From a virus (lineage: Duplodnaviria > Heunggongvirae > Uroviricota > Caudoviricetes): a DNA stretch of 9,208 nt. Under the pieces are notes generated by a model. It saw nothing but the letters and a program-made list of their open reading frames with translations. It was not told where the DNA came from and searched no databases. Within the stretch, counting starts at the first letter, position 1; each line of letters opens with the position of its first letter. The stretch lies in the IMG/VR virus record IMGVR_UViG_2526164634_000013, positions 1 to 9,208 of that record. One strand, given 5' to 3'. Shown in pieces: positions 1-9,208 of this stretch. The position numbers and the translations under genes are program-made.

Positions 1-1
1 C

Positions 2-172
2 ACCATTGGCGATAAAAGCATTTACCTGTATGACCTGCGCCGCATGGATGAAATCATGGAGGCTCTTGATAATCGTTCGTCGATGGATTGGTGTGTTGCT
101 GTCCATGATATGAATGCCGGATTTGATGAAAGGATTTTGTTCCCCTCATCAGTTGAAAGCACTGCGGGTTAA
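2..172 (+). CDS. 3' end of an upstream gene (partial, function unknown)
   Basis: Reading frame 2 is open from the window edge to TAA at 170-172 (…SVESTAG*). No start codon in window and no recognisable motif. The stop overlaps the AAGGAG Shine-Dalgarno of the next gene. Confidence 0.3.
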   Translation, partial: TIGDKSIYLYDLRRMDEIMEALDNRSSMDWCVAVHDMNAGFDERILFPSSVESTAG

Positions 173-182
173 GGAGTAACAC

Positions 183-1412
183 ATGACCACTATTACCAAA
201 GAACGTATTGAATTGTTCATTAAAAATCCGCTTGAAAACGGGCTTACCCGTGGTGAACAAATGGAACTGGCACGGATTGCGCTGGCATCGCTGGAAGCAG
301 ATCCAGTTAAACGAGTTAACTCAGATCAGATGCGCCGAGTCTGCTTAGAAGCTAATCGCCATTTAGATAAATATGACGCGATGGCGAAAGAGGTAAATAA
401 GTTGCTTGGACGCATCGCCCCGCCAGCGCCGGTAGTGCCGGAAGAAGCAACTCCGGAAAACGTAGAAATGCTCTCTGGCTATGTTTCCACGTACAAATTA
501 ACCGATAGCGAGCGCGATATTGCTACCGAAATATGGAACGCCTGCCGCGCCGCCATGCTTCAGTCCGGAAACTTTCGGGAAAACAAGAATTCGTCAACCA
601 ATAATTTTCGGGAAATCGCGGAAACGTCAACCAACTATCCGGCAATTCCTAGTGAGGTGTTGTCCGCAATCCTGAAGGTTGCCAGGATTCGTGCCGATTT
701 CGATGATTTTGACGGTGACAGGCGAGGTATCGGTGATTGTCTGGATGAGGCTGAGCAAGAGCTTATCGTTACCATTAACAAATATGCCAGTCAGTTGGCA
801 GCAGAACCGATAGCGACTAATGACGTTCGAGAGCAGCAGACAGCCGTTCCGCCAGTTCCGGAAATACAGGATGATGTCGCGCAAGCAATTGAAAATCTCA
901 AGCAGAAGTTAGTGGAATGCAATCGCTATAACTACTGCGCAGATGCAGTTAAAGGCGTAGAGGATGCCTGCCACGCTGCCATGCTTCAGGGTAGCCAACC
1001 TGTAAGCCAAACTTACAAGTTGCCAGTTAATACACCTTGCCAAGATGCGCCAGCCCATATCTGGCTGCAAACGGCTGGAGTATGGCCAGAAGATGGCGAG
1101 TTAAGCGAATTAACGTGGTGCAGCCACAATCAGCACCATGATGACACGCTATATGTTCGAGCTGACCTTGTGAATGGCAACTCTCCGGTAACTCCGGATG
1201 GTTGGATAAGCTGTAGTGAGCGAATGCCGGATACCAAAACAGCCGTTCTTGTTGCCAGGGAGTTTGACAGGAAAGGTGACTGGCGAATGAAATGGGCGAC
1301 TTACATCCCGGGTCATCCTGACGCTAATGATGGGTGGATAATACCTGGTGCGTCGTGGATACCATCACACTGGATGCCTCTACCAGAACCGCCGCAGGAG
1401 GTGCGCCAATGA
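183..1412 (+). CDS. Prophage protein with C-terminal DUF551-like domain; N-terminal ~300 aa of unknown function
   Basis: 409-aa ORF with ATG at 183 preceded by AAGGAG (171-176). The C-terminus (…WISCSERMPD…WIIPGASWIPSHWMPLPEPPQ) matches, from memory, the W-rich DUF551 signature ending in HWMPLPEPP seen in enterobacterial prophage proteins. No database search was run. Confidence 0.75.
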   Translation: MTTITKERIELFIKNPLENGLTRGEQMELARIALASLEADPVKRVNSDQMRRVCLEANRHLDKYDAMAKEVNKLLGRIAPPAPVVPEEATPENVEMLSGYVSTYKLTDSERDIATEIWNACRAAMLQSGNFRENKNSSTNNFREIAETSTNYPAIPSEVLSAILKVARIRADFDDFDGDRRGIGDCLDEAEQELIVTINKYASQLAAEPIATNDVREQQTAVPPVPEIQDDVAQAIENLKQKLVECNRYNYCADAVKGVEDACHAAMLQGSQPVSQTYKLPVNTPCQDAPAHIWLQTAGVWPEDGELSELTWCSHNQHHDDTLYVRADLVNGNSPVTPDGWISCSERMPDTKTAVLVAREFDRKGDWRMKWATYIPGHPDANDGWIIPGASWIPSHWMPLPEPPQEVRQ

Positions 1413-1492
1413 ACTGGCCTGAAGCATTTGCAATTACAGGCGTTGCTATGGCTATAGCTTTTTTAGTATATGTTATTTGTCGGTGGGGGTAA
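1409..1492 (+). CDS. Micro-ORF, 27-aa hydrophobic peptide (MNWPEAFAITGVAMAIAFLVYVICRWG), putative single-pass membrane peptide
   Basis: ATG at 1409 overlaps the TGA of the upstream gene (ATGA coupling). AGGAGG at 1396-1401 sits 7 nt upstream. A hydrophobic stretch of about 20 residues is followed by RW. Too short for the supplied ORF track; translated by hand. Confidence 0.4.
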   Translation: MNWPEAFAITGVAMAIAFLVYVICRWG

Positions 1493-1527
1493 AAACGTTC
1501 GCCGGGATTAACACCAAAGGAGGGAAT

Positions 1528-1632
1528 ATGTCGGATGATATATCACTGGCAATGGAAGGTGCGCTGGCTGTTGTTGCTGTTGTGGGCGTTTACTGCCTGG
1601 TTGTGTTTTTGATGGATCGACTAGGGAACTGA
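1528..1632 (+). CDS. Micro-ORF, 34-aa hydrophobic peptide (MSDDISLAMEGALAVVAVVGVYCLVVFLMDRLGN), putative single-pass membrane peptide
   Basis: ATG at 1528 with AAGGAGGG at 1517-1524. Acidic N-terminus followed by a ~20-residue hydrophobic helix. Not in the ORF track; translated by hand. Confidence 0.45.
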   Translation: MSDDISLAMEGALAVVAVVGVYCLVVFLMDRLGN

Positions 1633-1640
1633 ATTCATTA

Positions 1641-1662
1641 CGATATGGGAATTCCCATATCG
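1641..1662. repeat. Perfect 22-bp palindrome CGATATGGGAATTCCCATATCG
   Basis: The sequence equals its own reverse complement and contains a central GAATTC. It lies 9 nt after the stop of the 34-aa micro-ORF and about 35 bp upstream of the predicted hok promoter. No U-tract follows, so it is not a classical intrinsic terminator. Confidence 0.6.
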
Positions 1663-1673
1663 GGTAAAAACGG

Positions 1674-1702
1674 TTTGCGGTAAAGCGAGAGTTAAGTAGA
1701 AT
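1674..1702 (+). promoter_or_regulatory. Candidate sigma70 promoter of the hok transcript (-35 TTTGCG/TTGCGG, -10 TAGAAT at 1697-1702)
   Basis: TAGAAT matches the -10 consensus at 5 of 6 positions, with a 16-17 bp spacer to a weak TTG-containing -35. The predicted +1 near 1707-1709 coincides with the 5' arm of the long-range complementarity to the mRNA 3' end. Confidence 0.4.
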
Positions 1703-1878
1703 TGCAGCGGGTGCTTGAGGCTATCTGTCTCAGGCATGAACACCAAAAGGCAGATAGAGAAAAGCCCCAGTTAACATTATGCGTCCTGCAAGACGCTTAA
1801 CATTAATCTGAGGCCCAATCTATGTCTCACAAATGTAGGTTAGCCTCTTACGTGCCGAAAGGCAAGGAGAAGCAGGCT

Positions 1879-2034
1879 ATGAAGCAGCAAAAGGCGATGT
1901 TAATCGCCCTGATCGTCATCTGTTTAACCGTCATAGTGACGGCACTGGTAACGAGGAAAGACCTCTGCGAGGTACGAATCCGAACCGGCCAGACGGAGGT
2001 CGCTGTCTTCACAGCTTACGAACCTGAGGAGTAA
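1879..2034 (+). CDS. hokD: Hok/Gef-family type I toxin (51 aa, small membrane-depolarising peptide)
   Basis: The product MKQQKAMLIALIVICLTVIVTALVTRKDLCEVRIRTGQTEVAVFTAYEPEE has the Hok/Gef hallmark: N-terminal TM helix and conserved TRKDLCEV…R…G…EVA.F.AYE. From memory it matches E. coli HokD/RelF very closely. The family call is secure; the exact paralog name is by recall only. An in-frame upstream ATG at 1822 with GAGG SD gives the 70-aa track ORF. Confidence 0.85.
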   Translation: MKQQKAMLIALIVICLTVIVTALVTRKDLCEVRIRTGQTEVAVFTAYEPEE

Positions 2035-2082
2035 GAGACCAGGCGGGGGAGAATCCCTCGCCACCTCTGATGTGTCAGGCAT

Positions 2083-2097
2083 CCTCAACGCACCCGC
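2083..2097 (+). promoter_or_regulatory. 3' fold-back element of hok mRNA (fbi-like), complementary to the predicted 5' end at 1707-1720
   Basis: 1707-1720 (GCGGGTGCTTGAGG) pairs antiparallel with 2083-2097 (CCTCAACGCACCCGC): 8 bp plus 6 bp with one bulged C. This is the architecture described for hok mRNAs, where the 3' end pairs with the 5' translational activator region. Confidence 0.5.
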
Positions 2098-2103
2098 ACT
2101 TAA

Positions 2104-2128
2104 CCCGCTTCGGCGGGTTTTGTTTTTT
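2104..2128 (+). terminator. Rho-independent terminator ending the hok transcript
   Basis: Hairpin CCGC-TTCG-GCGG (2105-2116) followed by GTTTTGTTTTTT. Confidence 0.75.
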
Positions 2129-2200
2129 CCTGGCATTCTGGTTTACAATTCGCACACCAGCCTGAACAACTGGCACCTGCTGCGCCAGCAGAGACAACCG

Positions 2201-2479
2201 ATGGCGCACGATACCAAATTACACAATTCTGATGATTCTGCCGTCTTTGCCAGCAGGCACGGGCGGCGTTCCCGCACTTTCAAATCTGACTGGTTCCAGC
2301 ATCCCCCATGCACTGAAGAACAGGCCGAGTGGCTAATTCAGTGCTACCGCAGACACGGATACGAGATTAAGAAAGCCCTCAGCCTCGATTATCGTCACTG
2401 GATAATCTCCGTCAGGCTTCCTTACTCCGAACGCCCACCGCGTCCGTCCCGCACATTCCAGCAACGCATCTGGAGGTAA
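2201..2479 (+). CDS. Small basic hypothetical protein (92 aa); Rem-like by position only
   Basis: ORF with ATG at 2201 chosen because the track start at 2072 would overlap the hok terminator. The SD is weak (GAGA). The TAA stop at 2477-2479 sits 1 nt before the GTG start of the next gene. Sits where rem sits between hokD and ydfU in the Qin prophage, as I recall that order. Confidence 0.45.
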   Translation: MAHDTKLHNSDDSAVFASRHGRRSRTFKSDWFQHPPCTEEQAEWLIQCYRRHGYEIKKALSLDYRHWIISVRLPYSERPPRPSRTFQQRIWR

Positions 2480-2480
2480 C

Positions 2481-3527
2481 GTGCGGGTATTACTTCGACC
2501 TGTTCTGGTACCGGAACTCGGGCTGGTGATCGTTAAGCCGGGCCGTGAATCCATGCCGGTATTCCACAATACCCGGGTACTGGTGGAGCCGGAACCGAAA
2601 AGCATGCGTAATCTGTCGTCCGGGGTCGTTCCTGCCGTTCGCCAGCCGCTGGCGGAGGATAAATCATTACTGCCATTTTTCAGCGACGAACGAGTGATTC
2701 GTGCTGCTGGTGGCGCTGGCGCATTGTCTGACTGGTTACTGCGCCATGTTAAATCCTGCCAGTGGCCACACGGCGATTATCACCACAGTGAAACCGTCAT
2801 TCACCGTTATGGTACCGGCGCAATGGTGTTGTGCTGGCACTGCGACAACCAGCTGCGCGACCAGACCTCCGAATCACTCGGGCAACTTGCTCACCAAAAC
2901 CTGTCTGCATGGATGATTGACGTCATACGCCATGCAATGAATGGCTCGCAGGAACGGGAATTATCGCTGGCTGAATTATCCTGGTGGGCGGTCCGCAATC
3001 AGGTGGCGGACGCGCTACCGGAAGCGGTATTACGTCGTTCGCTGGGGTTGCGTGCGGAAAAAATCCGCTCAATGTACCGTGAAAGCGACATCGTACCGGG
3101 AGAGCAGACCGCCACCAGCATACTGAAGCAGCGCACAAAAAATCTTGCGCCGCTGCCTCACGCCCACCAGCAAAACCCGCCACAGGAAGAGACGGTGGTC
3201 AGCATTGCCGTTGATCCTGAGTCTCCGGAATCTTTCATGAAACGACCTAAACGTCGCCGCTGGGTTAACGAGAAATACACACGCTGGGTGAAGACACAGC
3301 CGTGTGCGTGTTGTGGTAAGCCAGCCGACGATCCCCATCACCTGATTGGTCATGGTCAGGGCGGAATGGGGACAAAATCTCACGATATTTTCACGCTACC
3401 GCTGTGTCGGGAGCATCACAACGAGCTTCATGCGGATCCTCTGGCGTTCGAAGAAAAGTATGCTTCTCAGGTTGATTTAATTTTTCGTTTTCTTGATCAC
3501 GCCTTTGCAACTGGCGTGCTTGGGTAA
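2481..3527 (+). CDS. ydfU: DUF968 (YdfU-like) prophage protein with C-terminal Cys/His HNH-like motif
   Basis: 348-aa ORF with GTG start at 2481 and GGAGG at 2472-2476. The C-terminal segment CACCGKPADDPHHLIGHGQGG…LPLCREHHNELH resembles a zinc-binding HNH-type module. The length matches the roughly 349-aa YdfU of Qin as I recall it; the family call is by recall. Confidence 0.75.
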   Translation: MRVLLRPVLVPELGLVIVKPGRESMPVFHNTRVLVEPEPKSMRNLSSGVVPAVRQPLAEDKSLLPFFSDERVIRAAGGAGALSDWLLRHVKSCQWPHGDYHHSETVIHRYGTGAMVLCWHCDNQLRDQTSESLGQLAHQNLSAWMIDVIRHAMNGSQERELSLAELSWWAVRNQVADALPEAVLRRSLGLRAEKIRSMYRESDIVPGEQTATSILKQRTKNLAPLPHAHQQNPPQEETVVSIAVDPESPESFMKRPKRRRWVNEKYTRWVKTQPCACCGKPADDPHHLIGHGQGGMGTKSHDIFTLPLCREHHNELHADPLAFEEKYASQVDLIFRFLDHAFATGVLG

Positions 3528-3539
3528 AAGAGGTGACTG

Positions 3540-3899
3540 ATGCTCATAGATTTGGTTTTACCTTACCCGCCGACGGTGAACACTTACTGGCGACGCCGTG
3601 GCAGCACATATTTTATCTCGGAGGAGGGAAAGCGTTATCGCCGTGATGTGGCGCTTATTGTTCGCCAGCAGCAACTGAAATTAAACCTGTCCGGAAGGCC
3701 GGCAATAGAAATTATTGCAGAGCCACCGGATAAGCGCCGTCGTGACCTGGACAATATCCTGAAGGCACCACTGGATGTACTGACGCATGCGGGGCTGCTC
3801 ATAGACGACGAGCAGTTTGATGAAATTAATATTGTGCGCGGTCAGCTTGTTCCTGGTGGGCGGTTGGGGATAAAAATCACAGAACTGGAGTATGCATGA
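3540..3899 (+). CDS. rusA: RusA-family Holliday junction resolvase
   Basis: 119-aa product with PPxxNxYWRRRG…RRRDLDN…DDxQ…GGRL, matching the RusA catalytic acidic-residue pattern. SD AGAGG upstream. The stop overlaps the next start (ATGA at 3896-3899). Confidence 0.88.
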   Translation: MLIDLVLPYPPTVNTYWRRRGSTYFISEEGKRYRRDVALIVRQQQLKLNLSGRPAIEIIAEPPDKRRRDLDNILKAPLDVLTHAGLLIDDEQFDEINIVRGQLVPGGRLGIKITELEYA

Positions 3900-4585
3900 A
3901 TAACCAGTATTTACAGTTTGTTCGTGAGCAACTCATGATTGCCACCGCCGATTTGAGTGGATCAACAAAAGGGCAGCTTGAGGCCTGGCAGGAGAATGCC
4001 ATGTTTGATACAGGGCGTTACAGGCGTAAAAAAATCCGGTACCGCGATGAAGTGACTGGAAAAATGATAACGCGGGATAATCCACCAATCCCGGGAAAGC
4101 AATCGCTGGCGAAGGGGGCGTCAATTCCTCTCGTCAGTCCGGTTGAGTTTTTGACATCATCGTGGCGGCGGGCTGTTCTGTCTCTTGAAGAACATCATAA
4201 AGCCTGGTTGTTGTGGTGTTACAGCGGGAGTATTTGTTGGGAATATCAGATCGCGATAACGCAGTGGGTGTGGAATGAATTTAAAACCCGGTACGGCACC
4301 AGAAAAATTGCAGGGAAAACGCAGGAGCGCGCGAAGAAGTTGATCTGGCTGGCGGCACAGGATGTCAGAGGATGGATTACCGGGTGTGAGGTCTACCAGA
4401 GACAGGAGCTTGCCAGACTGTGTGGAGTTAAGCCTGATAACTGGAGCCATAATTATGCGAACTACTGGCGTGAGATGTGCGATATTTTTAAGAGTCTCGA
4501 TAGAGAATCTGTGATTTGCACCGTGAAAATAAGAGCGCAACAAAAAGCGACTTTTTCACGACGAGATATTGCAAAAGTCAATTAA
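3896..4585 (+). CDS. Putative late-gene antiterminator Q (long Q-like family, QuuQ/YdfT-type)
   Basis: 229-aa ORF translationally coupled to rusA, with GGAG 5 nt upstream. It is the last gene before a promoter-like AT-rich stretch and a strong terminator, which is the canonical Q position in lambdoid phages. The family is inferred mainly from synteny; I cannot confirm by motif. Confidence 0.55.
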   Translation: MNNQYLQFVREQLMIATADLSGSTKGQLEAWQENAMFDTGRYRRKKIRYRDEVTGKMITRDNPPIPGKQSLAKGASIPLVSPVEFLTSSWRRAVLSLEEHHKAWLLWCYSGSICWEYQIAITQWVWNEFKTRYGTRKIAGKTQERAKKLIWLAAQDVRGWITGCEVYQRQELARLCGVKPDNWSHNYANYWREMCDIFKSLDRESVICTVKIRAQQKATFSRRDIAKVN

Positions 4586-4644
4586 ATAGCGTACGTTTCG
4601 TATAAATCTGATATTTTGCCGATTTTGTACGCGATGGCAAAGTA

Positions 4645-4675
4645 AGAAAAAAACTGCCGTCAGGCGGTTTTTTTT
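4645..4675 (+). terminator. Strong intrinsic terminator downstream of Q (tR'-like), flanked by A-run and T-run
   Basis: AGAAAAAAA, then stem CTGCC-GTCA-GGCGG (one G-U pair), then TTTTTTTT (4668-4675). It is about 60 nt downstream of a TATAAAT box (4601-4607). Confidence 0.7.
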
Positions 4676-4797
4676 ATGCCCAAAATCGCGTCAGTACAGT
4701 AAACACGCTGGTGGTTGCGAATACGGGTCTTTCAGCTTGCTGGCTTTTTCGACAAGAGTTATTGGTATGTCACGTTAACCGGAAAAAGGAAAAAGAC

Positions 4798-4995
4798 ATG
4801 CTAAAACAGCAGGATATGACAGAAACCGCCAGAGTGGTGTTTAATGAATTAAGCGTTACCGAACCGGCGACAGTCGGGGAGATAGCGCAGAATACTTACC
4901 TTTCACGCGAACGCTGCCAGTTAATACTGACTCAGCTGGTTATGGCGGGTCTGGCAGACTATCAGTTCGGTTGTTACAGACGCCTTCCGCAGTGA
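4798..4995 (+). CDS. Small helix-turn-helix DNA-binding protein (65 aa)
   Basis: ATG at 4798 with AGGA 8-11 nt upstream. The segment ATVGEIAQNTYLSRERCQLILTQLVMAGLA has an HTH-like pattern. The track start at 4711 is an in-frame extension lacking an SD. Confidence 0.55.
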   Translation: MLKQQDMTETARVVFNELSVTEPATVGEIAQNTYLSRERCQLILTQLVMAGLADYQFGCYRRLPQ

Positions 4996-5006
4996 AGGCT
5001 TTTTTA
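4982..5006 (+). terminator. Intrinsic terminator overlapping the stop codon of the HTH gene
   Basis: Stem GCCTTC (4982-4987) / GAAGGC (4994-4999) with loop CGCAGT, followed by TTTTTTATTT. Confidence 0.6.
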
Positions 5007-5023
5007 TTTGTGGTAAATGGGCG

Positions 5024-5052
5024 GCTGGTGGGTGTTAGGGGCACCCACCAGC
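5024..5052 (+). repeat. Perfect 11-bp-stem hairpin (GCTGGTGGGTG / CACCCACCAGC, 7-nt loop) in the methyltransferase leader
   Basis: Exact inverted repeat with no following U-tract. A second 7-bp-stem hairpin lies at 5095-5113 (CTGCTTT-GCGCA-AAAGCAG). Confidence 0.6.
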
Positions 5053-5145
5053 CATCTGCTCATGCGTTGGGTTCACAAGCAAACCTCAGGCCCACTGCTT
5101 TGCGCAAAAGCAGAATGAGCCTATCAGAGACAGGCTTAATGATCC

Positions 5146-6195
5146 ATGCTTAATACTGTAAAAATATCCAGTTGTGAGTTAATCAACGCCGACTGCCTGG
5201 AATTTATCCGGTCGTTACCCGAAAATTCTGTTGACCTGATAGTCACGGACCCGCCGTACTTTAAAGTGAAGCCTGAGGGCTGGGATAACCAGTGGAAGGG
5301 CGACGATGATTACCTGAAATGGCTGGACCAGTGTCTGGCGCAGTTCTGGCGGGTGCTGAAACCTGCCGGAAGTCTTTACCTGTTCTGTGGTCATCGCCTG
5401 GCATCTGATATCGAAATCATGATGCGTGAACGCTTCAGTGTGCTGAACCATATTATCTGGGCGAAGCCGTCCGGACGCTGGAACGGGTGCAACAAGGAAA
5501 GCCTGCGGGCGTATTTCCCCGCCACAGAGCGCATTCTGTTCGCGGAACATTATCAGGGGCCGTATCGCCCGAAAGATGCCGGGTATGAGGCGAAGGGCAG
5601 GGCACTGAAACAGCATGTGATGGCCCCGCTGATTTCTTACTTTCGTGATGCGCGCGCTGCCCTGGGGATAACGGCAAAACAGATAGTGGATGCCACAGGA
5701 AAGAAAAACATGGTGTCACACTGGTTCAGTGCCAGTCAGTGGCAGCTACCGAACGAAAGCGATTATCTGAAATTACAGTCGCTGTTTGCCCGGGTGGCAG
5801 AAGAGAAACATCAGCGGGGAGAACTGGAAAAGTCCCATTACCAACTGGTCAGCACATACAGTGAGCTGAACCGGCAGTATACGGAACTGCAGAGTGAATA
5901 TAAGCATCTGCGGCGGTATTTTGGCGTGACGGCGCAGGTGCCGTACACGGATGTGTGGACGCATAAACCGGTGCAGTACTATCCAGGGAAACATCCGTGC
6001 GAAAAACCGGCAGAAATGCTGCAGCAGATAATCAGCGCAAGTAGTCGTCCTGGTGATCTGGTTGCGGATTTTTTCATGGGGTCGGGTTCAACGGTAAAAG
6101 CGGCGATGGCACTGGGGCGTCGTGCGATTGGCGTTGAACTGGAGACCGGACGTTTTGAGCAGACAGTCAGGGAAGTTCAGGATTTAATCGTTTGA
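5146..6195 (+). CDS. Orphan DNA methyltransferase, beta class (N6-adenine/N4-cytosine family, PF01555-like)
   Basis: 349-aa product with catalytic DPPY (residues 35-38) preceding the AdoMet-binding motif HPCEKP…GDLVADFFMGSGST (residues 283-316). That motif order defines the beta class, and DPPY rather than SPPY favours N6-adenine. No obvious SD before the ATG. No restriction endonuclease ORF in the window. Confidence 0.88.
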   Translation: MLNTVKISSCELINADCLEFIRSLPENSVDLIVTDPPYFKVKPEGWDNQWKGDDDYLKWLDQCLAQFWRVLKPAGSLYLFCGHRLASDIEIMMRERFSVLNHIIWAKPSGRWNGCNKESLRAYFPATERILFAEHYQGPYRPKDAGYEAKGRALKQHVMAPLISYFRDARAALGITAKQIVDATGKKNMVSHWFSASQWQLPNESDYLKLQSLFARVAEEKHQRGELEKSHYQLVSTYSELNRQYTELQSEYKHLRRYFGVTAQVPYTDVWTHKPVQYYPGKHPCEKPAEMLQQIISASSRPGDLVADFFMGSGSTVKAAMALGRRAIGVELETGRFEQTVREVQDLIV

Positions 6196-6244
6196 AACGG
6201 ATGAGATTGCAGAATTAATTACGCACCATTATTATTCTGCTCCC

Positions 6245-6320
6245 GGCCCTTTAGCTCAGTGGTGAGAGCGAGCGACTCATAATCGCCAGGTCGCTGGTTC
6301 AAATCCAGCAAGGGCCACCA
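6245..6320 (+). tRNA. ileZ: tRNA-Ile2 (anticodon CAU, lysidine type), ileZ-like
   Basis: Hand-folded cloverleaf: acceptor GGCCCTT/AAGGGCC, D-stem GCTC/GAGC, anticodon loop CTCATAA, T-loop TTCAAAT, encoded CCA. Closely resembles E. coli tRNA-Ile2 as recalled. Confidence 0.8.
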
Positions 6321-6327
6321 TCACATA

Positions 6328-6404
6328 CCGCCATTAGCTCATCAGGAAAGAGCGCCAGCCTTCGAAGCTGGCTGCGCGGAGTTCGGGTCCCCGAAGGCGG
6401 TCCA
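6328..6404 (+). tRNA. argN: tRNA-Arg (anticodon UCG as read from sequence), argN-like; atypical stems
   Basis: Perfect anticodon stem CCAGC/GCTGG with loop CTTCGAA, D-stem GCTC/GAGC, encoded CCA. However there is one A-A mismatch in the acceptor stem, one A-C mismatch in the T-stem, and the T-loop is TTCGGGT (G at position 58). Confidence 0.55.
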
Positions 6405-6417
6405 TTATCTGTATCCT

Positions 6418-6494
6418 GCGTTGTTAGCTCAGCCGGACAGAGCAATTGCCTTCTAAGTAATCGGTCACTGGTTCGAATCCAGTACAACGCGCCA
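6418..6494 (+). tRNA. argO: tRNA-Arg (anticodon UCU), argO-like
   Basis: Acceptor GCGTTGT/ACAACGC, D-stem GCTC/GAGC, anticodon stem ATTGC/GTAAT with loop CTTCTAA, T-arm ACTGG-TTCGAAT-CCAGT, encoded CCA. Confidence 0.82.
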
Positions 6495-6508
6495 CACTTA
6501 TTTTCCCT

Positions 6509-6533
6509 GGCTCGCTTTTGCGGGCCTTTTTTT
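6509..6533 (+). terminator. Intrinsic terminator immediately after the tRNA cluster
   Basis: Stem GGCTCGC / GCGGGCC (one U-G pair) with loop TTTT, followed by TTTTTTT. Confidence 0.7.
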
Positions 6534-6730
6534 AAATGTCTCACAATTCAGACGGTTGACAGTTGTCTGTTTTGCGGGGAGTTTGTTAAAAGAAACTGGC
6601 ATGGTGAATCCCCCTGTGCGGAGGGGCAATCAGCGAGTAGGTATATGGGATAATCGCGGATTCAGGTGCTGGTACTGAATTCACCGGGAGGCACCCGGCA
6701 CCATGCAATGGCACATAGCGCCACTCTCCA

Positions 6731-6755
6731 GCCCCTCTCCGGAGGGGCTTTCTTA
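6731..6755 (+). terminator. GC-rich hairpin with T-rich tail (terminator-like) in the tRNA-to-esterase interval
   Basis: Stem GCCCCTC / GAGGGGC with loop TCCG, followed by TTTCTTA. Shares the core CGGAGGGGC with a second hairpin at 6611-6626. Confidence 0.4.
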
Positions 6756-6760
6756 TGGAC

Positions 6761-6788
6761 AAAAAAATCCCGCGCTGGGAGACGCGGG
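6761..6788 (-). terminator. Minus-strand intrinsic terminator-like element (hairpin CCCGCG/CGCGGG followed on the minus strand by U7)
   Basis: On the + strand this reads AAAAAAAT, then CCCGCG, an 8-nt loop, then CGCGGG. On the minus strand that is hairpin plus T-run. It sits back-to-back with the + strand hairpin at 6731-6755. Confidence 0.35.
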
Positions 6789-6982
6789 CGGCAAGGAATA
6801 AACATCAAAACGTGAAGTAATATTTCAGCTGGCGAATAATATCCGACAGTAATCACTCTGCGCAATAGCGCGGCCTTTTTCGTATTGCGGACTGTTGTCT
6901 CTCTTCTGCCATTGTCCTGTAACTTCCGGACTTCAGCCCGCTCCTCATTTTACTCACAATATTATCCCGGCCGGGAGGATTC

Positions 6983-8836
6983 ATGGCATTTAAACACTAT
7001 GATGTTGTCAGGGCGGCGTCGCCGTCAGACCTTGCGGAAAAGCTGACACATAAACTGAAAGAGGGCTGGCAGCCGTTTGGTAGTCCGGTGGCCATAACCC
7101 CTTATACCCTGATGCAGGCGATTGCAGCAGAAGGTGATGTGGTCGTCAGTGGTGCAACTGAGCCGGAGTGGTACTACGTCATCGTACTGGCCGGGCAGTC
7201 CAATGCCATGGCTTACGGTGAAGGGCTTCCGCTTCCGGATTCATACGATGCGCCGGATCCGCGCATTAAACAGCTGGCGCGCCGCAGTACAGTGACGCCG
7301 GGTGGGGCTGCCTGCAGATATAACGATATTATTCCGGCCGACCACTGCCTGCATGATGTGCAGGATATGAGTACGCTGAATCATCCGAAGGCAGACCTGA
7401 GCAAAGGGCAGTACGGCTGTGTCGGCCAGGGCTTACATATTGCCAAAAAACTGCTTCCGTATATCCCGAATAACGCGGGGATCCTGCTGGTACCATGCTG
7501 TCGTGGTGGTTCGGCATTCACCCAGGGCGCGGAGGGGACATTCAGTGCGGACACGGGGGCCAGCCAGGATTCGGCACGCTGGGGTGTGGGTAAACCGTTA
7601 TATCAGGACCTGATTGCGCGCACTAAAGCTGCATTACAGAAGAACCCGAAAAATGTGTTGCTGGCGGTGTGCTGGATGCAGGGAGAGTTTGACATGAGCG
7701 CCGCCACCTACGCACAGCAACCTGCGCTGTTTACAGCCATGCTGAAGCAGTTTCGTGCTGACCTCACTGTGTTTAACGCGCAGTGTCATGGTGGCAGTGC
7801 TGCAGATGTGCCGTGGATTTGTGGTGACACGACGTATTACTGGAAAAATACATACGCTACCCAGTACGACACCGTGTACGGCGGGTATAAAAACAGGGAG
7901 AGTGAGGGCGTTTATTTTGTGCCCTTCATGACAGACGGTAACGGCGTCAATACCGCCACTAACGCACCGGCAGAAGATCCGGATATTCCGGCATCAGGAT
8001 ATTACGGTGCGGCATCGAGAACGAATGGAAACCAGGTATCATCAAACCGCCCGACACATTTCAGTTCATGGGCGCGCAGGAGCATTATTCCGGATCGTAT
8101 GGCAACCGCTATTCTGAACGCAGCCGGGCGCACCTCAGCCTTCATCAGTGGTAAGGCACCGGAAATCAAACCCTCGCCCGGCGTCGACACGCCATCGGGG
8201 CCGTCTGAAGATGCATCCGTACGCACAATCTCCCTGTTGCCGACAGCCGGAGAGGCTGCTGCGCAGGGCTGGACCATTAAGGACGGCGGAATTCAGTTGT
8301 CGGGTGGTGTATTTAAGATCGCCAAGCAGAGCAATAAAGCCTGGTCCCTGACGCGCCCGGTGGGTGACGCAGTCTCCCTGCTGACACGGGGTGGCAGACT
8401 GAGCTGTAAGTTTCGACTGTCAGGCGCACTGACCAACAACCAGTTCGGTCTGGGAATTTATCTGTATACCGATGTAGCGTTACCTGACGTCGTGGCGATG
8501 ACCGGGACTGGTAACCCGTTCCTGATGTCGTTCTTCACCCAGACCACAGACGGCAAACTGAATCTGATGCATCACAAGAAAGCAGGAAACACAAAGTTGG
8601 GCGAGTTCGGGAATTACAGTAACGACTGGCAGACGCTGGAGCTGGTGTTCACCGCCGGCCAGTGCCACGGTTACTCCGAAACTGAATGGAGTGGCTGGCC
8701 CGGCATTCCAGGTCATAAAGACAGTCTGACAGTGGGACTAAATGCACTGACGCTGACGGATATTACCAAAAATGCAACGTATGGCGTTGAGATAGAAAGT
8801 CTGGTGCTGGAGATAAATGCACCGGCATCATCATAA
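6983..8836 (+). CDS. nanS-p: Prophage sialate O-acetylesterase NanS-p-like (SGNH/SASA hydrolase with N-terminal DUF1737-like region)
   Basis: 617-aa product. The motif [16 protein letters not shown] carries the GQSN catalytic-serine signature of SASA-type esterases (NanS/YjhS family). The N-terminal [21 protein letters not shown]… resembles the short domain that heads prophage NanS-p proteins. GGGAGG SD at 6973-6978. Confidence 0.8.
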
Positions 8837-8921
8837 AAAGTGAGCCAGTCAAGTGGAAGGTATCGTTAAACTCACCGGTAGTGTCAGTGGGTCGTCTGAG
8901 ACGCCTGCATGAGTTATCAGA

Positions 8922-8950
8922 GCCATCAGTACTTAACTGGTGGCTTTTTT
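8922..8950 (+). terminator. Intrinsic terminator between the esterase gene and the holin gene
   Basis: Stem GCCATCAG / CTGGTGGC (one G-U pair) with 7-nt loop TACTTAA, followed by TTTTTTATT. Confidence 0.6.
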
Positions 8951-8985
8951 ATTGTTGTCAGCTTCCGGATAACGGGAGACGGGGT

Positions 8986-9201
8986 ATGTACCAGATGGAA
9001 AAAATCACAACAGGTGTGTCATACACCACGTCAGCGGTGGGAACGGGCTACTGGTTCCTGCAGTTGCTGGACAGGGTTTCCCCGTCTCAGTGGGCGGCAA
9101 TAGGCGTGCTGGGGAGTCTGCTGTTTGGGCTGCTGACATATCTGACTAACCTGTATTTCAAAATCAGAGAGGACCGTCGTAAGGCGGCGCGGGGAGAGTA
9201 A
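8986..9201 (+). CDS. S: S21-like pinholin (class II holin) with dual-start motif
   Basis: 71-aa product [71 protein letters not shown]. From memory it is near-identical over the C-terminal two thirds to the phage 21 holin (…[15 protein letters not shown]…[22 protein letters not shown]). Two TM segments and Met1/Met4 dual starts. The track ORF from 8881 is an unsupported N-terminal extension. A new ATG at 9206 starts the next gene. Confidence 0.85.
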
Positions 9202-9208
9202 AGCGATG

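Follow-up and report, generated by a model that had tools for sequence, protein, structure and literature searches.

The window analyzed here, a stretch of 9,208 nucleotides comprising positions 1 to 9,208 of the caudovirus record IMGVR_UViG_2526164634_000013, contains an interval of 488 bp (6495-6982) between a tRNA cluster and a gene for a NanS-p-type esterase, its extent being set by the end of the tRNAs at 6494 (as located by ARAGORN) and by the start of a 617-aa open reading frame at 6983. Pfam and PHROG assignments bear out the gene order reported in the first-pass annotation of this sequence, namely Q, tRNAs, interval, NanS-p-like esterase and holin. The Q antiterminator (PF06323) is encoded at 3896-4585, and a DNA methylase gene (5146-6195) lies between Q and the tRNAs. 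The tRNA cluster itself (6245-6494, plus strand; ileZ-type CAU, Arg-UCG and Arg-UCU), recovered by ARAGORN as well as by Rfam tRNA matches, corresponds to the annotated ileZ/argN/argO genes of the prophages Sp4 and Sp5 of E. coli O157:H7 strain Sakai. The esterase gene (6983-8836, plus strand) encodes a sialate O-acetylesterase of 617 aa with the Pfam domains DUF1737, SASA and DUF6645, and its homologues are annotated as yjhS, NanS or SASA esterase; the holin gene lies within 8881-9201. Gene order and homology on both flanks (see below) together identify the locus as a late region of the Stx-phage type, in which Q, tRNAs, a moron slot, nanS-p and holin follow one another.

The interval had been described as free of ORFs, which is borne out inasmuch as the plus-strand ORFs that overlap it are only 40, 49 and 53 aa long and none is conserved; on the minus strand, there are ORFs of 43-67 aa and an 81-aa ORF that mostly covers the tRNAs. 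A consensus scan of both strands of the region 6150-7100 for terminators and promoters, with shuffled sequence as the control, detected six terminator-like sites, one of them inside a tRNA, compared to 1.3 +/- 1.4 in the shuffles. The terminator proposed earlier at 6509-6533 (plus strand) was recovered as a stem at 6509-6526 followed by a T-run and closes the tRNA cluster; judging by the homology to the Stx2a phage L001 and Sakai Sp5, the same terminator is located upstream of stx2A in Stx2 phages. Another plus-strand terminator-like hairpin (6858-6880) lies inside the minus-strand small RNA gene discussed below, with a stem and T-run that are identical in all five aligned phages and a loop that varies at two columns.

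The stx slot

In the first-pass annotation, this interval was placed at the site where Stx-converting phages carry stxAB, and three possibilities were considered for it: an unoccupied moron site, a decayed or deleted toxin locus, or a site with non-coding cargo. A blastn comparison with the Stx2a phage L001 (LC567842) matched window positions 6150-6532 to L001 1782-2165, upstream of stx2A, and window positions 6537-7038 to L001 3501-4025, downstream of stx2B. Because the flanking matches end at 6532 and resume at 6537, only the four bases 6533-6536 occupy the position of the 1335-bp stx2AB cassette (L001 2166-3500), and Sakai Sp5 shows the same break in homology (6532/6537). Compared to the stx2AB moron of the Sp5/933W type, the locus thus shares the tRNA cluster and terminator on the left and the STnc100 module (see below) and nanS-p on the right, whereas the cassette itself, with its 53-bp leader, stx2A, stx2B and 41-bp tail, is missing and is replaced by 4 bp. 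Since the interval is homologous to both stx flanks, and the downstream gene is indeed a nanS-p homologue, the proposed synteny with Stx phages is upheld.

No sign of a Shiga toxin locus, whether intact or decayed, emerged from searches for toxin sequences between the tRNAs and nanS-p. A tblastn search with the A and B subunits of Stx1 and Stx2 as queries (E<=10) yielded no match in 6495-6982, so that no residual stxA or stxB was detected by translated search, and blastn with both stx cassettes at E<=1 yielded none in the same interval. The decayed toxin locus is accordingly without support. With respect to the other two possibilities, each captures a part of the locus. The stxB-to-nanS-p spacers of Sp5, the Stx2a phage and the Stx1 phage all align with window positions 6537-6990, each of them contains a copy of STnc100 (160-208 bits), and the minus-strand small RNA slot between stxB and nanS-p is likewise present in Stx1 and Stx2 phages. 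An unoccupied site is therefore an apt description of the 4-bp joint at 6533-6536 but not of 6537-6982, which is a conserved stxB-to-nanS-p spacer; conversely, non-coding cargo is an apt description of 6537-6982, with its two published sRNA genes, but not of the toxin slot itself. Judged from these alignments, the sRNA genes beside the slot are part of the backbone, present with or without stx, and not a substitute for stx.

The joint could also be a scar rather than a site that was never occupied, if the phage descended from an Stx phage by clean deletion of stxAB. Both flanks are homologous to those of Stx2 phages, and an imperfect direct repeat of 7 bp borders the stx2 cassette (ATATCTG at the start, TAATCTG at the end), of which the empty site contains a single related TAAATG, such that recombination between the repeats could excise the cassette precisely. 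However, so short and imperfect a repeat may have arisen by chance, there are zero stx remnants, and the flanks are merely 91% and about 80% identical to those of the Stx2 phage, which implies that the phage is not a recent derivative of an Stx phage. Furthermore, the empty form is widespread: of the 5426 complete E. coli genomes, 955 have the tRNA-interval-esterase arrangement in contiguous form, among them isolates from wastewater, river water and chicken, and a Traversvirus phage that is stx-negative has it too. The direction of the event does not follow from comparing two states, and on balance we regard descent by deletion as unlikely. With its 4-bp joint and no remnant, the locus can serve as an stx-negative reference against which the limits of the stx2 cassette are cleanly defined.

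The plus-strand STnc100-family RNA

The closest published counterpart of the interval is the spacer between argO1 and ECs_1088 in Sakai Sp4, which is 98.4% identical to it (eight differences in 489 columns). The resemblance extends to the three tRNAs, the 489-bp length of the spacer, the gene for a 617-aa esterase and the stx-negative state of Sp4; the differences are the eight point differences, including TTGACA in the window versus TTGACT in Sp4, and the remainder of the window, which is another mosaic. In the Sp4 spacer, EcOnc05 (plus strand, ~222 nt) and EcOnc08/EcOnc21 (minus strand, ~271 nt) have been listed as sRNAs (Tree et al., 2014, Mol Cell, PMC4104026, Table S2) that form a convergent Hfq-bound pair, the Sp4 copy of EcOnc05 being documented by a CRAC peak and a ~222-nt Northern band (Tree et al., 2014, PMC4104026). 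The reverse complement of the EcOnc05 Northern probe is found at window 6628-6662 and the EcOnc08/21/42 Northern probe at window 6835-6869, both with 35 of 35 positions identical and no mismatches. Moreover, of the Sakai Hfq CRAC peaks, those of the plus strand correspond to window 6631-6739 and those of the minus strand to 6763-6835 and 6841-6926. Convergent sRNAs between a moron CDS and a conserved phage ORF downstream of PR' have been reported for Sp3, 4, 5, 9, 10, 11, 15 and 17 (PMC4104026).

The plus-strand gene (6570-6760) is an EcOnc05-type member of the STnc100 family: in an Rfam scan of the window, the match to RF02076 scored 139.2 bits, against a gathering threshold of 47, and spanned model positions 1-206 of 206. 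Two hairpins that share CGGAGGGGC, pointed out previously at 6611-6626 and 6731-6748, are real and turn out to be parts of this match. The first (6611-6626; CCCCU/AGGGG) is the first STnc100 stem-loop according to the Rfam alignment and corresponds to RNAalifold columns 13-28; the second, together with a U-rich tail, makes up the intrinsic terminator of the RNA (6731-6756), which is recovered by the terminator scan (6730-6749), by Rfam and by the predicted fold. The predicted minimum free energy fold recovers the closing helix, the stem-loops and the terminator of STnc100 (z = -2.5), and RNAalifold detected compensatory, double-sided changes in 4 of 35 predicted pairs within the small sample of seven homologues, among which the central segment of the RNA is hypervariable.

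The covariance-model fit and the compensatory base-pair changes also bear on whether the interval encodes one or more small proteins, such as the products of a 49-aa ORF at 6666-6815 (plus strand) or a 67-aa ORF at 6662-6865 (minus strand). ORFs of 40-67 aa do exist here, in RefSeq the homologous region is covered by partial pseudogenes labelled "hypothetical protein", an ORF b70 is annotated there in the Stx1 phage record, and ribosome footprints have been reported on some of the STnc100 copies of EDL933 (PMC5331693). Nevertheless, apart from the 139-bit fit and the compensatory changes, the frames and lengths of these ORFs shift between close homologues via 1-nt indels, the 67-aa ORF being split into 37 and 69 aa in a 98%-identical O104:H4 copy; the ORFs are wholly replaced in Sp5, and those of the minus strand begin with TTG. 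Small-protein coding by the 40-67-aa ORFs, which are not conserved between homologues, was accordingly rejected, and we consider it extremely unlikely.

Returning to the STnc100 reading, a candidate sigma-70 promoter read from the sequence (6563-6592, plus strand) consists of TTGTCT (6563-6568), an 18-nt spacer, a TG at 6584-6585 and TAAAAG (6587-6592), and is probably the promoter of the plus-strand sRNA, with transcription starting at G6599. This start is suggested by the promoter geometry and by the 5' end of PasD2: an upstream sequence of the PasD-like kind, otherwise unrelated, repeats the arrangement TTGNNT, 18 nt, TAAAA[AG], 6-7 nt, GCATGG, and the 5' end of PasD2 estimated from RNA-seq is the G of GCAUGG. 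The probable extent of the STnc100 transcript is 6599 to about 6756. A longer form that would begin near 6535-6545 is suggested by the ~222-nt band of the Sp4 copy, which it would fit, and by the position of the EcOnc13 probe upstream of GCAUGG in a homologue; hence two candidate 5' ends stand for the plus-strand RNA, 6599 and about 6535-6545. The TTGACA box that had been noted at 6556-6561 as lacking a convincing -10 is present as described, and the scan yields no plus-strand promoter for it. With no -10 at a distance of 16-18 bp, it is probably not a working -35; it reads TTGACT in Sp4, is missing from the Stx1 phage and other upstream module types, and is located 7 bp upstream of the better-fitting TTGTCT/TAAAAG promoter.

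Among other characterized members of the family, EcOnc27 of Sp5 and sRNA103 of EDL933 (RF02076) resemble the RNA of the window in the scaffold of a closing helix, three stem-loops and a terminator and in the position directly downstream of the moron slot. In contrast, the window copy has a central segment of the Sp4/EcOnc05 type, which falls short of that in Sp5 or the Stx1 phages by about 15-25 nt, and the STnc100 score is 139 bits in the window versus 208 in Sp5. Previous work has reported STnc100 75 nt downstream of stx2 (PMC12370729), its overlap with EcOnc27/sRNA103 and an increase in fimZ and espA transcripts upon overexpression of EcOnc27/sRNA103, the Sp5 relative (PMC12711010), and ribosome footprints on some EDL933 copies (PMC5331693, cited above). 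The PasD1 and PasD2 RNAs of EPEC (Pearl Mizrahi et al., 2021; Zhu, Shabalina and Storz, 2026, preprint) are similar in the first ~30 nt (GCAUGGUGAAUCC...), in promoter geometry and in position upstream of a sialate esterase gene, and common ancestry of PasD and STnc100 has been proposed. The alignment of PasD to the window, however, covers just these first ~30 nt and one stem, with megablast-level similarity limited to the start of the esterase gene; the PasD body is missing, and TGTGAG (the UGUGAG seed) was not found in 6540-6757. PasA/PasC were also rejected for the stretch that separates the esterase gene from the holin gene, where the PasA probe was unmatched with up to three mismatches.

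The convergent minus-strand RNA

The second sRNA gene (6760-6954, minus strand) is convergent with STnc100 and is assigned to the EcOnc08/EcOnc21 type by the probe match, by homology to EPEC and by the Sakai CRAC peaks. Over 203 bp, it shares 98.5% identity with the EPEC locus NC_011601 1444794-1444996, and the EPEC sRNA E2348C_1409.E2348C_1408.IGR (NC_011601 1444797-1444978, minus strand) maps to window 6761-6942. That RNA is Hfq-associated, was found by RIL-seq in EPEC E2348/69 and has been equated by its authors with EHEC EcOnc08/21/42 (Pearl Mizrahi et al., 2021, PMC8550237). The window and EPEC genes share the terminator, the CCUUGCC seed and a position upstream of, and antisense to, the esterase gene; they differ in that the STnc100 gene beside the sRNA is split by ISEc13 in the EPEC prophage PP6 but is intact in the window.

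At the 3' end, the minus-strand terminator-like element that had been noted at 6761-6788 proved to be genuine in the scan and is the intrinsic terminator of this gene (6760-6788, with the stem at 6788-6769 and a T-run); the ends of the RIL-seq chimeras in EPEC coincide with the 3' end matching this terminator. Directly 5' of the rho-independent terminator lies the seed CCUUGCC (6790-6796, minus strand; GGCAAGG on the plus strand), which is complementary to the target motif GGCAAGG: among the EPEC RIL-seq targets, cfa, tir, emrA and pcm share GGCAAGG/GGCAGGG, and dppA has the related GGCAGCG (PMC8550237, supplement). At the 5' end, a promoter-like site (6961-6989, minus strand) composed of ATGCCA, 17 nt and GATAAT overlaps the start codon of the esterase gene and is the sole promoter-like match on either strand in the consensus scan of 6150-7100. 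From its position, we infer that this site may drive the minus-strand sRNA with a start at about 6954, which is 12 nt upstream of the 5' end estimated in EPEC (6942). The size of the RNA differs between the published accounts, 182 nt in EPEC (PMC8550237) versus ~271 nt in EHEC (PMC4104026). In terms of predicted folding, the whole RNA is as stable as shuffled sequence (z = -0.2).

From its position, the minus-strand element would be expected to be AsxR or AgvB, and we rejected this identity, given that the scaffold differs and there is no Rfam match. The models RF02703/RF02702 (AsxR/AgvB) had no match at E<=10 in 6700-7000 and none at the gathering threshold window-wide, whereas the positive control for AsxR in Sakai Sp5 scored 88.1 bits. 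The resemblance to AsxR, AgvB and EcOnc03 lies in the slot, which is located between the moron and nanS-p, in an orientation that converges on STnc100 and in Hfq dependence, and in Sakai Sp5 the minus-strand slot indeed holds AsxR in place of an EcOnc08/21-type RNA. The RNAs are nonetheless non-homologous: the 42-nt AsxR/AgvB scaffold is missing from the window, and the minus-strand RNA displays neither the ~42-nt 3' scaffold (GUAUCUCAUGC.AUUGCCCGAACCCA.UCGGGC) nor the length of 51-60 nt that characterize the anti-sRNAs, the RNA of the window being about 180-270 nt long. Esr41 was also rejected as an identity, with merely a 13-bit, chance-level match in a homologue. The minus-strand sRNA has no name and no Rfam family, and yet it is present in 1117 of the 5426 complete E. 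coli genomes.

A probable sRNA pair in the late operon

Taken together, these observations make it very probable that the interval represents the usual spacer by which the moron slot is separated from nanS-p in the late operon of a toxin-free lambdoid prophage and that it harbors a convergent pair of sRNAs. Under this interpretation, the interval is composed of three parts, namely the tRNA-cluster terminator (6509-6533), the empty 4-bp stx joint (6533-6536) and two convergent sRNA genes, each independently terminated and each present regardless of stx. The plus-strand gene is predicted to produce a structured STnc100 RNA of roughly 155-220 nt, with a conserved scaffold of several stems, a hypervariable center and a rho-independent terminator. 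The minus-strand gene would give rise to an RNA of roughly 180-195 nt that starts beside the nanS-p start codon, terminates 4-8 nt away from where the plus-strand RNA ends and exposes the CCUUGCC seed just ahead of its terminator.

By analogy with near-identical copies, for which this has been demonstrated, both RNAs are likely to be expressed in the lysogen from their own promoters and to bind Hfq; in the copies described in the literature, EcOnc27 and PasD are destabilized in an hfq mutant, and STnc100-family transcripts show Hfq-associated expression in EDL933 as well (PMC5331693). Likewise, as in the EPEC copy, which forms seed-mediated chimeras with cfa, dppA, tir and further mRNAs, the minus-strand RNA may pair via its seed with GGCAAGG-type sites in mRNAs of the host and of virulence genes. 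Judging from general lambdoid biology, Q-modified polymerase starting from PR' would, after induction, pass all terminators of the interval and continue into nanS-p and the lysis genes.

The abundance of terminators raises the alternative that these elements act in cis only, as a terminator stack that insulates nanS-p and the lysis genes against read-through in the lysogen, with the RNAs as by-products. Four to five terminator-like hairpins in 490 bp, compared to an expectation of 1.3, within a Q-antiterminated operon would fit such a role, as would the conserved plus-strand hairpin at 6858-6880, to which no RNA is assigned. This alternative is, however, difficult to reconcile with the properties of near-identical loci, the RNAs of which are abundant, Hfq-bound and Hfq-stabilized and form specific chimeras with target mRNAs that share a seed-complementary motif. 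Moreover, the STnc100 scaffold is conserved with covariation far upstream of the terminator, and the module is found in contexts without nanS-p. A purely cis-acting role therefore appears very improbable, and we favor the sRNA pair.

The observation that drew attention to this interval is real, but published work already accounts for it as a known sRNA pair beside an empty stx slot, in a common stx-negative lambdoid prophage backbone. RNAs of the EcOnc05 and EcOnc08/21 types have been described from prophages of E. coli O157 and EPEC; the pair next to the moron slot, its occurrence with and without stx, and both RNA families have likewise been published (Tree et al., 2014; Pearl Mizrahi et al., 2021; Paganini et al., 2025; Zhu et al., 2026, preprint). 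The finding is thus an ordinary one because the interval holds two described sRNA genes and the stx slot is a clean 4-base joint. In the RefSeq records inspected, both sRNAs are either unannotated or covered by spurious pseudo-CDSs; as a consequence of this annotation gap, "ORF-free gaps" at this position will keep being flagged.

With respect to distribution, the best whole-window matches in the set of 5426 complete E. coli genomes cover 80-84% of the window at 93-96% identity, which marks the window as a mosaic. The STnc100 variant alone is present in 2861 of these genomes, in up to 12 copies each. Among 100 copies of STnc100 in viral contigs, the central-segment variant of the window is the commonest (51 copies), and the configuration of tRNA terminator, STnc100, EcOnc08/21-type RNA and nanS-p start is found in 13. 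In these 100 copies, the STnc100 gene follows several unrelated left-hand sequences, including the tRNA terminator and the tails of stx2B and stx1B, and each time the homology begins within about 10 bp of the conserved box TTAAAT-N3-TC[A/T]CAATTCAG. One might speculate that this box is a preferred recombination joint, that is, that the 5' edge of the STnc100 module is a favored site for splicing accessory genes into lambdoid late operons, although we consider this rather doubtful. In that case, the stx2AB mRNA, the tRNA operon or other genes upstream would be the source from which the long sRNA form is transcribed or processed, and the sRNA pair would act as an anchor of homology through which toxin cassettes could move from one phage backbone to another. 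The variety of left-hand sequences at the STnc100 edge also fits the known mosaic nature of such phages.

Variation of the small RNA genes among related phages

The slot on the minus strand between stxB and the esterase gene is occupied by AsxR in Sakai Sp5 and by an RNA of the EcOnc08/21 type in phage 12E129. Since both are Stx2a phages, AsxR is not a fixed companion of stx2a.

The convergent plus-strand gene, STnc100, varies in integrity and in copy number. In prophage PP6 of EPEC E2348/69 it is interrupted by ISEc13 (601-2150 of that sequence), with an 8-bp overlap equivalent to window positions 6614-6621; despite this insertion, the convergent minus-strand sRNA of PP6 is intact, and this copy has been detected by RIL-seq. 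Phage vB_EcoS-813R8 carries a tandem pair of STnc100-family copies (1925-2152 and 2405-2613), whose sequence identities to the copy in the window are 72% and 91%, respectively, and an iraM-like gene lies downstream of both. In the public records listed (L003, L002 and that of PP6), neither sRNA is annotated, and the STnc100 region is covered by partial or pseudo "hypothetical protein" coding sequences (7391-7516 in L003, 3357-3680 in L002 and 2153-2251 in PP6).

Within the minus-strand sRNA gene, a terminator-like hairpin in plus-strand orientation, CTGCGCAATAGCGCGG followed by CCTTTTTCG, is found at 6858-6880. Its stem and T-run are identical in all five aligned phages, which include Stx1, Stx2 and stx-negative representatives, and its loop varies at two columns. 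This hairpin, to which no plus-strand RNA is assigned, may function as a stop for read-through from STnc100 or, alternatively, may contribute to the structure of the antisense RNA.

Ends of the stx2AB cassette and the empty site

The stx2AB cassette of phage 12E129 starts with ATATCTG (2166-2172) and ends with TAATCTG (3494-3500), whereas the empty site in the window (6532-6538) contains only one TAAATG. This pattern may reflect either short-homology recombination or chance.

Elements elsewhere in the window

Two plus-strand terminator-like hairpins (4656-4668 and 4982-4999) lie 3′ of Q, which ends at 4585, and an open reading frame at 4711-4995 matches phrog_331, a family of unknown function. 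By analogy with StxS and the lambda 6S RNA, the first of these hairpins is a candidate tR′ that would terminate a short RNA transcribed from PR′.

The esterase and holin genes are separated by a 150-bp spacer (8837-8986), with a plus-strand hairpin and T-run near 8923-8950. At the equivalent position in EPEC, the minus strand is occupied by PasA and PasC; the PasA probe had no match in the window spacer with up to three mismatches allowed.

Finally, the segment 1709-2034 is a type I toxin-antitoxin locus of the hok/sok type. The Rfam sok model matches the plus strand at 1709-1884 (121 bits), and a 70-aa open reading frame that overlaps this match, at 1822-2034, is assigned to phrog_251, a family of MokW-like host-killing proteins.
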